From a virus: DNA of 11,552 nt. This document shows, piece after piece, positions 8,448-11,003 of the stretch (positions within the stretch are counted from its first letter, which is position 1; every line of letters starts with the position of its first letter). The DNA is taken from the UHGV virus genome UHGV-0140649; one strand, written 5' to 3'. The notes beneath the pieces are model-generated. The model was not told the DNA's origin. It made no database searches and was given only the letters and a program-made list of their open reading frames with translations. The position numbers and the translations under genes were made by a program.

Positions 8448-8462
8448 TCGCTTTGTCAGCGA
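8448..8462 (-). promoter_or_regulatory. nutR boxB hairpin (P22 type, GACAA loop)
   Basis: The minus-strand transcript reads UCGCUGACAAAGCGA (5-bp stem, loop GACAA), matching the P22 boxB sequence as recalled; located between cro and cII. Confidence 0.6.
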
Positions 8463-8500
8463 CGTAGGACGAATGTCCATTGTGAAAATAGCGGTGTTAC

Positions 8501-8734
8501 TTATGCAGCCGATGCTTTACGCGATACGAACACTAGGTTTTCCTTTTTCACAGGTTTATAACCCGTGAAATTACGAGTAGCTTCTTCGATTGCATTCGCT
8601 TTATCAGGGGAAGCTCTTCGAAATCCATATGCAATCTGGTCAAGATAGCCAACTGAAGTTTTCGCTAATGCGGCGAGTCGCTTCCATTCCTCACTAGAAG
8701 CCTCTTTTCGCCAGCGTAGTAGTTCATTACTCAT
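8501..8734 (-). CDS. cro: Cro-like repressor (first gene of the PR operon)
   Basis: 77-aa ORF divergent from cI, GGAGG 6 nt upstream of its ATG, with a helix-turn-helix-like segment (TSVGYLDQIAYGFRRASPDKANAIEEAT). Confidence 0.65.
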   Translation of the reverse strand: MSNELLRWRKEASSEEWKRLAALAKTSVGYLDQIAYGFRRASPDKANAIEEATRNFTGYKPVKKENLVFVSRKASAA

Positions 8735-8761
8735 TAGTGCCTCCGTTTATCACACAGAACA

Positions 8762-8834
8762 ACTTTACCATTTTGATAAATCATCCGCAATGTAAATTTA
8801 TCATATTGCGTATTTATCCATTTGCTAAATAGAG
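8762..8834. promoter_or_regulatory. OR operator region with divergent PR and PRM promoters
   Basis: Repeated operator-like motif around TTTATC/GATAAA at 8745, 8775, 8798 and 8813. PR candidate on the minus strand: TTGCGG (8790-8785), 17 nt, TAAAGT (8767-8762). PRM candidate on the plus strand: TTGCGT (8806-8811), 17 nt, ATAGAG. Confidence 0.5.
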
Positions 8835-8847
8835 GGAAAATTGTGAG

Positions 8848-9552
8848 ATGGAAAACAAAGATATTCGCAAATCGAATCTGGCGTTTTTGCTAGATGAGCA
8901 TAAAAAAATCGCGGGTAACACTAATGCAAGCTTTGCCGATAAGCTTGGGGTTAGCCCTTCTCAACTCACGCAAGTCTCCGGTGAAAAAAGCACTCGAAAC
9001 ATAGGGGATAAACTAGCAAGAAAATTTGAAGCCGCGCTTGGGTTACCTAATGGGTGGCTTGATTTGGTACATGATGTAACACCAATTGCATCATGCTCAG
9101 ATTCTTTAACTTTTGTCGGTCAGGTAAGAAAAGGGTTAGTGCGCGTGGTTGGTGAGGCAATTCTTGGTGTTGATGGTGCCATCGAGATGACCGAAGAGCG
9201 CGATGGGTGGCTCAAAATTTATAGCGATGATCCAGATGCCTTTGGCCTTCGTGTGAAAGGAGACAGCATGTGGCCCAGAATAAAATCAGGAGAATATGTA
9301 CTCATTGAGCCTAACACCAAAGTATTCCCGGGTGATGAGGTGTTTGTCAGAACCGTTGAAGGACACAACATGATTAAGGTTCTTGGCTATGACAGAGATG
9401 GAGAATATCAATTTACAAGCATCAACCAGGACCACAGGCCAATAACGTTGCCTTATCATCAAGTAGCAAAGGTGGAGTATGTTGCTGGTATTCTGAAGCA
9501 ATCTCGCCATCTGGATGACATCGAGGCAAGGGAATGGCTGAAAAGTTCGTGA
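8848..9552 (+). CDS. cI: CI-type phage repressor (HTH plus S24 LexA-like autopeptidase domain)
   Basis: 234 aa. N-terminal HTH (ASFADKLGVSPSQLTQV) and C-terminal S24 block including LRVKGDSMWPRIKSGEYVLIEP. Confidence 0.9.
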   Translation: MENKDIRKSNLAFLLDEHKKIAGNTNASFADKLGVSPSQLTQVSGEKSTRNIGDKLARKFEAALGLPNGWLDLVHDVTPIASCSDSLTFVGQVRKGLVRVVGEAILGVDGAIEMTEERDGWLKIYSDDPDAFGLRVKGDSMWPRIKSGEYVLIEPNTKVFPGDEVFVRTVEGHNMIKVLGYDRDGEYQFTSINQDHRPITLPYHQVAKVEYVAGILKQSRHLDDIEAREWLKSS

Positions 9553-9632
9553 CTTCATCGTCACACAGCTGGTAAGTATCCAATTTTTATAATCACTAAT
9601 TTAACTAGCAAGGTTGTGCCGAAGGTGTTGTA

Positions 9633-10658
9633 ATGAAAGATATTATTAATGTTTCAAGTCTGGACGACATTGAATCTTTGTTTGCAAGGTTAGATGGTGG
9701 CGAAGAGATCACTATCGACAGGATCAAGTTAGACCTCTTCAATAATGTGAATTTTAAGATTTATGGTGATCCTTCTCGCTACAACGGAACGCTTCCATCT
9801 CCTCTAGCTCAGGGTTTATGCGAATTTCAGACTGAAATTTATAAAGTTTTCACACTAATAAAATATAAAACTGACAACCTTCAAAGGTTAACTGGTAAAG
9901 ATAAAGAGGAAGCAGAGATCATCTTTACCATTAATGAAGGTTGTACTGATATACTTGCTGCATTAACAGAGCTTTTTGAAGCATTCGGTAAAGCCTTTGA
10001 GAAGGTAACACACGGTATGAGTCCTAGCCAAAAAACATTATGCTTCTTGTTTGCTGTCACCGTTATAGGCGGTGCATGGGTTGGTACATCATACTTAGAG
10101 AAAAAAGCCGAGGTAGAAGTCAAGCAAGAAGAAACAAAGCTCGAAGAAGCCAAGATTAAATCAGAAAACGAGCGCATGACGATATTAAGGGACGGAATGC
10201 TTGAGGCGATTAGAGCAAAAGCGGGCATAGATGCAGTAGAGCGCGCCGAAGGGATTCAAGAGCATACTGCAAAAGCGTATACAGGGGTATTAAAAGGCGC
10301 GTCTGATGCTGACAAAATTGTCATATCAGGCGCAAGCACAGTTGAACTGTCTAACAAAGAAATCCACGAACTAATCAAGAACCCTATCGAAAAAGCAAAA
10401 AAAGAAGAAAGAAACCTTGAATTAGTCATTGATGGAATCAAGCGTACTGCGGAAAAGATAACCCTAAGCTGCCGCGAACCATCTAGTGAAGACAGTTTCC
10501 CTGTTTCGGTGGACACGTCGTTCATAGATGATAAAGACGAGATCGCCATACTGTTTGATACAATGAAAGAAAACAGGACAGTAAAAATCTTGGGAAGCTA
10601 CACGATACGAGCAGGTGTAATAGAAAACGGAAACGCATCAACCATCACTCGCCCATAA
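9633..10658 (+). CDS. Hypothetical membrane-anchored coiled-coil protein (341 aa) in the rexAB-equivalent position
   Basis: AT-rich ORF with AAGGTG 5-6 nt upstream of its ATG, 80 bp after cI on the same strand and followed by a terminator. One hydrophobic segment (TLCFLFAVTVIGGAWVGTSYL), then a K/E-rich stretch (EKKAEVEVKQEETKLEEAKIKSENER). No family recognised. Confidence 0.7.
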   Translation: MKDIINVSSLDDIESLFARLDGGEEITIDRIKLDLFNNVNFKIYGDPSRYNGTLPSPLAQGLCEFQTEIYKVFTLIKYKTDNLQRLTGKDKEEAEIIFTINEGCTDILAALTELFEAFGKAFEKVTHGMSPSQKTLCFLFAVTVIGGAWVGTSYLEKKAEVEVKQEETKLEEAKIKSENERMTILRDGMLEAIRAKAGIDAVERAEGIQEHTAKAYTGVLKGASDADKIVISGASTVELSNKEIHELIKNPIEKAKKEERNLELVIDGIKRTAEKITLSCREPSSEDSFPVSVDTSFIDDKDEIAILFDTMKENRTVKILGSYTIRAGVIENGNASTITRP

Positions 10659-10668
10659 CAGAAAATCT

Positions 10669-10698
10669 AACCCCGGCCTCAGCGCCGGGTTTTCTTTG
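10669..10698 (+). terminator. Intrinsic terminator ending the cI operon
   Basis: Stem cccggc/gccggg (10672-10677/10684-10689), loop ctcagc, then ttttcttt. Confidence 0.65.
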
Positions 10699-10799
10699 CC
10701 TCACGATCCCCCACCTAAAAAAACATAACTCATTGTATTTGTTGAAAAATAAATAGATACAACTTGCTAAACAACGCAATCCAGATCTCCCTCAAATCT

Positions 10800-10920
10800 C
10801 TTTATTTATCCTGTCGAATTCCTACAACAAAATAAAACACCATAAGAATCAATACGATATTTGAAAACCAAGAGAATTTATCATTTTGCTATTGCCATTA
10901 ATTTATCATTCCGATAAAGT
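10800..10920 (+). promoter_or_regulatory. OL operator sites and PL promoter
   Basis: Operator-like motifs sharing the OR core: tttatttatcc (10800), gaatttatcatttt (10876) and taatttatcattcc (10899). PL candidate: TTGCCA (10892-10897), 17 nt, TAAAGT (10915-10920), the same -10 hexamer as the PR candidate. Confidence 0.5.
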
Positions 10921-10988
10921 TCACCCATCAGCAGGACGCATTACTCACCAGAGCGGTGAATATACAACGATTCGAATATGAATCTACG

Positions 10989-11003
10989 GCGCTGACAAAG
11001 CGC
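10989..11003 (+). promoter_or_regulatory. nutL boxB hairpin (P22 type)
   Basis: GCGCTGACAAAGCGC, a 5-bp stem with GACAA loop matching the P22 boxB-left RNA as recalled, about 60 nt downstream of the PL candidate and 165 nt upstream of N. Confidence 0.65.

Follow-up and report, generated by a model that had tools for sequence, protein, structure and literature searches.

H-19B is a Shiga toxin 1 (Stx1) phage, and its N/nut antitermination system was studied by Neely and Friedman (1998, 2000) and by the Sen laboratory (2005-2015). The nutR RNA of H-19B contains two hairpins and overlaps the Rho-dependent terminator tR1, and the nutR/tR1 region has long been used in the Sen laboratory as a model for the action of N against Rho; in the nutR RNA, N together with NusA/NusG protects the spacer and boxB, with boxA left unprotected (PMC3526286). 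Here we compare with this system the N gene and the two nut sites of the virus genome UHGV-0140649, from which a stretch of 11,552 nucleotides, hereafter the window, was analyzed. The window constitutes the early-control region of a lambdoid phage, in the orientation opposite to that of the usual lambda map, and the part that contains N and the nut sites very probably serves the immunity and early control of a mosaic lambdoid prophage with an H-19B-type N antitermination system. The two boxB hairpins belong to the already characterized H-19B-type nutL and nutR and are, as such, real but not new.

A boxB with a GACAA loop is found in both early operons, exactly as described in an earlier note on this DNA. 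The nutL boxB (GCGCTGACAAAGCGC; 10989-11003, plus strand; RNA GCGC-U-GACAA-A-GCGC) follows a pL-like promoter at a distance of about 60 nt and precedes N by 165 nt. The nutR boxB (TCGCTGACAAAGCGA; 8448-8462, minus strand; RNA UCGC-U-GACAA-A-GCGA) is located between cro, the stop codon of which is 38 nt upstream, and cII. In its own early operon, each copy occupies the sense strand and the classical nut position. Both boxB sequences fold into a 5-bp stem with the GACAA loop, and the minimum free energy (MFE) and centroid folds predict, in addition to the two boxB hairpins, a hairpin in each spacer. In nutL, the spacer hairpin (10969-10984, plus strand; GAUUC-GAAUAU-GAAUC) is followed by the junction CUACG (10984-10988, plus strand) directly 5' of boxB, and in nutR, the spacer hairpin (8467-8478, minus strand; GGAC-AUUC-GUCC) is likewise followed by CUACG (8467-8463), so that this pentamer abuts the boxB stem in positionally equivalent places at both sites. 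The complete order of elements in nutR is the boxA slot (CGCTATTTT in DNA and CGCUAUUUU in RNA; 8493-8485, minus strand, 22 nt upstream of boxB), ACAAYG, the small spacer hairpin, CUACG and boxB, and nutL shows the same order minus the boxA slot. The nutL upstream leader (GGTGAATATACAACG; 10928-10968, plus strand), located where lambda and P22 carry boxA, is the same in all H-19B-type relatives.

The correspondence to H-19B extends to the reagents of the published experiments. Four H-19B oligonucleotides of the Sen laboratory, namely RS662 (antisense to the nutR boxA), RS663 (spacer), RS664 (boxB) and RS665 (just after boxB) (PMC3526286), match the window at 100%, at positions 8482-8505, 8463-8484, 8443-8466 and 8422-8447, respectively, which makes this region a copy of the experimentally characterized nut site. 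The entire interval between the cro stop codon and cII is that of H-19B nutR/tR1 except for a single substitution just before cII and clearly outside nutR; it contains the boxA slot CGCTATTTT, the dyad-containing spacer and boxB UCGCUGACAAAGCGA, followed by the tR1 hairpin, all shared with H-19B. On the other side, between pL and N, the H-19B-type spacer dyad and boxB GCGCUGACAAAGCGC are present, and the sequence is identical to that of H-19B from GTGAATATACAACG through boxB (15 of 15 positions) into the N leader. The N protein itself is 97.6% identical to H-19B N (AF034975.3) over 127 of 127 amino acids in a tblastn search, which places it in the H-19B N family, and is 100% identical to the N proteins of many Stx1- and Stx2-converting phages; it also matches the Pfam N_peptide family with 57.5 bits (cutoff 27.9). 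The gene order N-(accessory open reading frame)-cI-cro-nutR-cII is shared with H-19B as well. Two other searches gave no comparable match: a PDB sequence search with N returned nothing relevant, the N-peptide entries being too short or too divergent, and an Rfam search at E<=1 detected no match to a nut or boxB family, only STnc100 and one weak chance match.

Relatives of this locus were assembled from two sources. The loci retrieved by N-protein similarity, which constitute the unbiased set, come from Salmonella phages 118970_sal4, S107, g341c and SI5 and from E. coli phage YYZ-2008; two DNA-pattern scans of IMG/VR, of which the second covered the GACAA-type sites (a 19-nt gap, compared to 12-18 in the first pattern), added about 140 loci that are often near-identical and should not be counted as independent events. 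The exact divergent nutL/nutR pair of the window occurs in about 70 loci, on at least 70 public phage contigs, with the sites 1.2-3.5 kb apart, a range that reflects the different immunity cassettes between them. In the protein-retrieved relatives, boxB varies on a conserved background of leader, ACAAYG, spacer hairpin and CUACG, with the nutL of YYZ-2008 departing from this pattern. The nutL spacer hairpin of these relatives combines an invariant stem with a variable loop, and CUACG is invariant in their nutL and nutR, with only UACG found in the nutL of YYZ-2008.

Across this family of nut sites, boxA degenerates, and changes of the boxB loop between GACAA and GAAA parallel those in N's arginine-rich motif (ARM). 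In about 145 loci, an ARM of the form ...RRRERLKAKAL always occurs with a five-base boxB loop, mostly GACAA (GUCAA at the nutL of the 118970_sal4-type loci), and an ARM of the form ...GRRRERRAALQ always occurs with a GAAA tetraloop, without a single exception. The GAAA sister class consists of S107, g341c, SI5, YYZ-2008 and about 50 IMG/VR loci, with boxB UCGCUGAAAAGCGA and the ARM FNGSAxGRRRERRAALQ. This class shares with the window the scaffold of leader, ACAAYG, spacer hairpin and CUACG as well as the ends of the N leader, and its N proteins are 67-71% identical to the window N in the Salmonella phages and 40% identical in YYZ-2008. It differs in boxB, the nutR version of which (UCGCU-GAAA-AGCGA) is that of the window minus the loop C, a one-base deletion, and has no counterpart of the base that is extruded from the pentaloops of lambda and P22. 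To our knowledge, a GAAA-tetraloop N/nut class has not been described.

The YYZ-2008 nutL (4355-4405 of its locus), with a leader that differs from those of the other relatives, carries a near-consensus boxA GGCTCTTTAAACAACG together with the spacer hairpin, TACG and a GAAA-loop boxB, an arrangement showing that boxA is an element distinct from the spacer module. Its spacer stem (GUCGA/UCGAC) is the third unrelated one to occupy the same position, next to GAUUC/GAAUC in the window nutL and GGAC/GUCC in nutR, which shows that the hairpin is kept at this position even as its sequence changes. In 118970_sal4, nutL is located about 75 nt downstream of the pL start and has the boxB GCUCC-GUCAA-CGAGC, with C.C at the base of the loop, and the nutR boxB is UCGCU-GACAA-GGCGA; the nut loops of a single phage can thus differ.

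Three points weigh against the assignment to the H-19B system. First, N differs from H-19B N at 3 of the 127 residues. Second, the N leader that connects boxB to the start of N is not the same as in H-19B, the inner sequence (about 11028-11136) being replaced and the long stem being retained in both. Third, the pattern used in the IMG/VR scans fixed part of the spacer, so that the spacer invariance among those loci is partly a matter of construction. The wider surroundings differ as well: H-19B has lambda-like O/P replication genes, whereas the window encodes an O-like protein and a DnaB helicase, and the accessory gene between cI and pL may also be different.

Among the alternatives, the one that fares best, although it is highly improbable, is that of a genuine P22-type N/nut system, with a gp24 orthologue and interchangeable nut sites, recombined into a lambda-like backbone; the earlier note had described P22-type boxB hairpins and a partly gp24-like N alongside lambda-like modules. 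The P22 genome record (BK000583), from which the P22 sequences were taken, confirms the P22 boxB on which the note relied. The P22 nutL is CGCTCTTTA-ACTTCGATGAT-GCGCTGACAAAGCGC (boxA-spacer-boxB), with a boxB identical to that of the window nutL at 15 of 15 positions, and the P22 nutR is CGCTCTTTA-CCAATCTGA-ACCGCCGACAACGCGGT, in which the GACAA loop is set on a different stem, so that all four sites carry the GACAA pentaloop. The description of the boxB hairpins in the note as P22-type is thus correct. The replication module of the window, with its O-like protein and DnaB helicase, is also P22-like. As for the claimed gp24-like ARM and C-terminus, the similarity is confined to the first half of the ARM (FKGNSRSRRRER versus FAGNAKTRRHER; common motif FxGN[AS][KR][TS]RRxER, with the shared start GN[AS][KR][TS]RRxER) and the last 30 residues, which include the RNA polymerase-binding segment LPxVA[IL]YAAGxRKSKQxTAR.

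The rest of N is unrelated to gp24 by BLASTP, which aligns only the last ~30 residues (99-127; 67% identity, E 3e-10); the MAFFT identity is 40%, the central two-thirds of the proteins are not alignable, and the second half of the ARM reads LKAKALAN in the window and RRKLAIER in P22. The two proteins are therefore not full-length orthologues. The nut sites differ as well: the true P22-type sites, those of P22 and of a 933W-like Stx2a phage, combine this class of boxB with a consensus boxA GCTCTTTA and an unstructured spacer of 10-11 nt, whereas in the window, CGCTCTTTA is not found ~10 nt upstream of either boxB, the nutL having at best a 5/9 match and the nutR having CGCTATTTT at 22 nt, and both spacers contain a hairpin. 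The nutR boxB stems are also different, with C.C at the loop base in P22. By far the closest characterized system is that of H-19B, and the N/nut region is assigned to it on the strength of the N sequence and of both nut sites.

The logic and layout are also those of lambda: nutL is found in the interval from pL to N, and nutR, which overlaps tR1, in that from cro to cII. The start of the pL leader (ATCAGCAGGACGC) is homologous in the two, and both have a structured N leader. However, the lambda boxB loops are GAAAA and GAAGA, as opposed to GACAA in the window; the lambda spacers are 8-9 nt long and lack a hairpin; the lambda ARM MDAQTRRRERRAEKQAQWK carries the loop-stacking Trp18, whereas the window N has no Trp at the aligned position; and the lambda boxA CGCTCTTA is required along with NusB/S10 (PMC3177189 and general knowledge).

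The canonical boxA sequence CGCTCTT, reported as missing upstream of both boxB hairpins, was not found there in our search either. The accompanying proposal that the stretch ATTCG...CTACG is a divergent boxA, recruiting NusB-NusE in place of CGCTCTT, does not hold, being even less likely than a P22 origin. In its favor, neither boxB has a canonical boxA within 30 nt, and CTACG adjoins both boxB hairpins and does not vary among the relatives. The stretch, however, is the published spacer covered by RS663, and it folds as a hairpin of its own; NusB-NusE reads single-stranded boxA (PMC3177189). Moreover, the register of ATTCG is not the same at nutL and nutR: in nutL (10970-10974), it starts 19 nt before boxB and covers stem and loop, and in nutR (8474-8470), it starts 12 nt before boxB and covers loop and stem. 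Given these unequal offsets and the different hairpin parts involved, the recurrence of ATTCG is a coincidence. Compared with CGCTCTTTA, the stretch agrees at 4-5 of 9 positions at most, nutR has a slot homologous to boxA further upstream, and in the nutL of YYZ-2008, a near-consensus boxA coexists with the spacer hairpin and TACG.

The nutR slot, in the RS662 region, matches CGCUCUUUA at 7 of 9 positions, a level that is reached by 7% of shuffles and is weak when taken alone. The slot is nevertheless homologous to boxA because 30 related loci have CGCTCTTTT at that exact position, where the window has CGCTATTTT. It contains A at position 5, the same change as in the lambda boxA C5A mutant, which greatly lowers the affinity for NusB-NusE and inhibits N antitermination (PMC3177189). 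A lambda-type boxA with G2, C5 and U6 intact is thus absent from both sites, nutR having A at position 5 and nutL having no candidate. Upstream of the nutL boxB, the best match to CGCTCTTTA is 5/9, which is reached by 88% of shuffles; CGGTGAATA was considered as a boxA in nutL and rejected given that its 5/9 match is at the chance level, and a boxA-like sequence was found in none of the nutL sites of the H-19B-type relatives. The N protein of H-19B reportedly needs NusA, and not NusB or S10, and both boxA and the spacer dyad are said to be dispensable, deletion of the latter having little effect. The degenerate nutR boxA and the boxA-less nutL fit the 'reduced requirement for host factors' that Neely and Friedman (2000) attribute to H-19B N in the title of their paper.

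The notion that the hairpin pair consists of functionless, chance inverted repeats can be dismissed: although an 11-mer core with one mismatch allowed produced at least two matches in 11 of 200 shuffles, the exact 13-mer CGCTGACAAAGCG common to both boxB sites, with two occurrences in the window, one per strand, was paired in 0 of 200 dinucleotide-preserving shuffles, each copy occupies the canonical nut position on the sense strand, the pair recurs in ~70 contigs with varying immunity cassettes in between, and both hairpins are identical to H-19B sites in experimental use, the identity to the functional H-19B nutR being already sufficient to refute a chance origin.

Beyond the nut sites proper, two further structures belong to the early transcripts. 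Between nutR and cII, the tR1 region contains a hairpin (8397-8425, minus strand; UAUGCGU-UUCC-ACGCAUA; fold z -3.0) that is identical in H-19B and is present, with different stem sequences, in the relatives. The N leader (11014-11156, plus strand) is strongly structured, with a predicted fold of -63.7 kcal/mol (z -4.2) in which 11014-11032 pairs with 11137-11156, adjoining the Shine-Dalgarno sequence of N (AGGAGG); the same long stem is formed in the H-19B N leader despite the different sequence of the inner 100 nt. This long stem resembles the RNase III structure of the lambda N leader. In nutR, the GGAC arm of the spacer hairpin (8475-8478, minus strand), the usual partner of which is 8467-8470 (minus strand), has a possible alternative partner in a second GUCC located directly after boxB (8444-8447; GCGA-GUCC-CAA). 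Such pairing could yield an alternative structure enclosing the nutR boxB and may have a link with what publications on H-19B call 'alternative NUT RNA structures'.

The N gene (11169-11552, plus strand; 127 amino acids) ends with its stop codon as the last triplet of the window. A pL-like promoter is predicted by a consensus scan at 10892-10920 (plus strand; TTGCCA-17-TAAAGT), with the transcript start placed near 10927-10929, at the motif ATCAGCAGGACGC that is common to the lambda and P22 pL. Upstream, on the same strand, are a cI-type repressor gene (8848-9552), with an S24 peptidase domain and annotated as cI in the nearest phage records, and an open reading frame of 341 amino acids (9633-10658), the only match of which is to phrog_6191 (unknown function), with no Pfam or PADLOC match; a strong intrinsic terminator (10672-10697, plus strand) is located at its end. 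Placed immediately after cI and before pL, this frame takes the position of rexAB in lambda, and its counterpart in phage PhiR12 records is annotated as 'T2SS GspM containing protein'; it is a candidate for a lysogen-expressed accessory or exclusion gene.

The genes on the minus strand form the rightward operon of the conventional map. The first of these is a cro-type gene (8501-8734; phrog_35, transcriptional repressor), in the cro position as in H-19B, and the first gene past nutR/tR1 is cII (8066-8362; Pfam Phage_CII, 110 bits), followed by the genes for an O-like initiator (7064-7885) and a DnaB-type helicase (5691-7067), and then by those for NinB (4776-5297; Pfam NinB), NinG (2066-2671; Pfam NinG) and the Q antiterminator (1504-2022; Pfam Phage_antitermQ). 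The Pfam matches bear out the CII, NinB, NinG and Q modules named in the earlier note; its lambda-like O holds for the N-terminal domain only (Pfam Phage_rep_O), the next gene being a DnaB-type helicase as in gp18/gp12 of P22 and not as in O/P of lambda. Between NinB and NinG, the nin region also encodes, on the minus strand, a 355-amino acid phrog_2384 protein (3545-4612), with a P63C-domain annotation in E. coli genomes, and an Ant/KilAC-type antirepressor (2671-3399; phrog_63).

About 330 nt downstream of Q, a strong Rfam match to the STnc100 small RNA (967-1172, minus strand; 143 bits, gathering score 47) may correspond to a Q-controlled late leader transcript. An open reading frame with its start near 743 (MAFKHYDVVRAASPSDLAERL...) is truncated by the left end of the window (1-743, minus strand), and its counterpart in E. 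coli prophage regions is annotated as 'SASA family carbohydrate esterase' (NanS-p-like). The gap between Q and this frame (744-1503) is free of stx and tRNA genes, and stx genes are absent from the entire window, so the element has the appearance of an Stx phage relative that lacks stx. In a comparison of the whole window with complete E. coli genomes, no contiguous match of at least 80% was found, the best coverage being 56%; the exact mosaic is absent from this genome set although each of its modules is present there.

A mechanism can be outlined for this element. Transcripts from pL (rightward in the window) and pR (leftward, through cro) would each carry a nut site, where the ARM near the N-terminus of N (FKGNSRSRRRERLKAKAL) is expected to bind the GACAA loop of boxB, with NusA recruited to the spacer. 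The C-terminal segment that N has in common with P22 gp24 would then engage RNA polymerase, and the modified polymerase would pass the Rho-dependent tR1 that overlaps nutR and subsequently the later terminators. Such readthrough would activate, in one direction, cII, Q and the genes of the replication and nin regions and, in the other direction, the genes that lie past N. As is said of H-19B, and unlike in lambda, NusB, S10 and boxA would probably not be needed. The N-boxB and NusA-spacer steps are supported for this exact RNA by the published footprints (PMC3526286), and the remaining steps are proposed by analogy with established knowledge of lambdoid N systems; the antitermination activity of the element and its host-factor requirements are likewise predicted from its sequence.

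As a discovery, the region adds little, being one more copy of an N/nut system that has been the subject of genetic and biochemical studies since 1998 and that is common in its H-19B form, occurring in many Stx phages and E. coli prophages. It is now classified as H-19B-type instead of a P22 graft, and the idea of a divergent boxA is removed. The combination of a C5A-type boxA in nutR with a nutL that lacks boxA would provide a reason, at the sequence level, for the independence of this family from NusB-NusE. A rather doubtful but possible reading, which pertains to the whole family and not to the window specifically, is that the structured spacer, composed of ACAAYG, the small hairpin and CUACG, is a selected functional module, for example, one that loads NusA or insulates boxB, and makes boxA and NusB-NusE dispensable; if true, this would partly revise the conclusion, reportedly reached for H-19B, that the dyad is dispensable. 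Finally, these loci provide a clean natural example of an N ARM that co-varies with the loop of boxB, a GACAA pentaloop in one class and a GAAA tetraloop in the other, while the scaffold is otherwise constant, which may be of interest for the study of peptide-RNA recognition.

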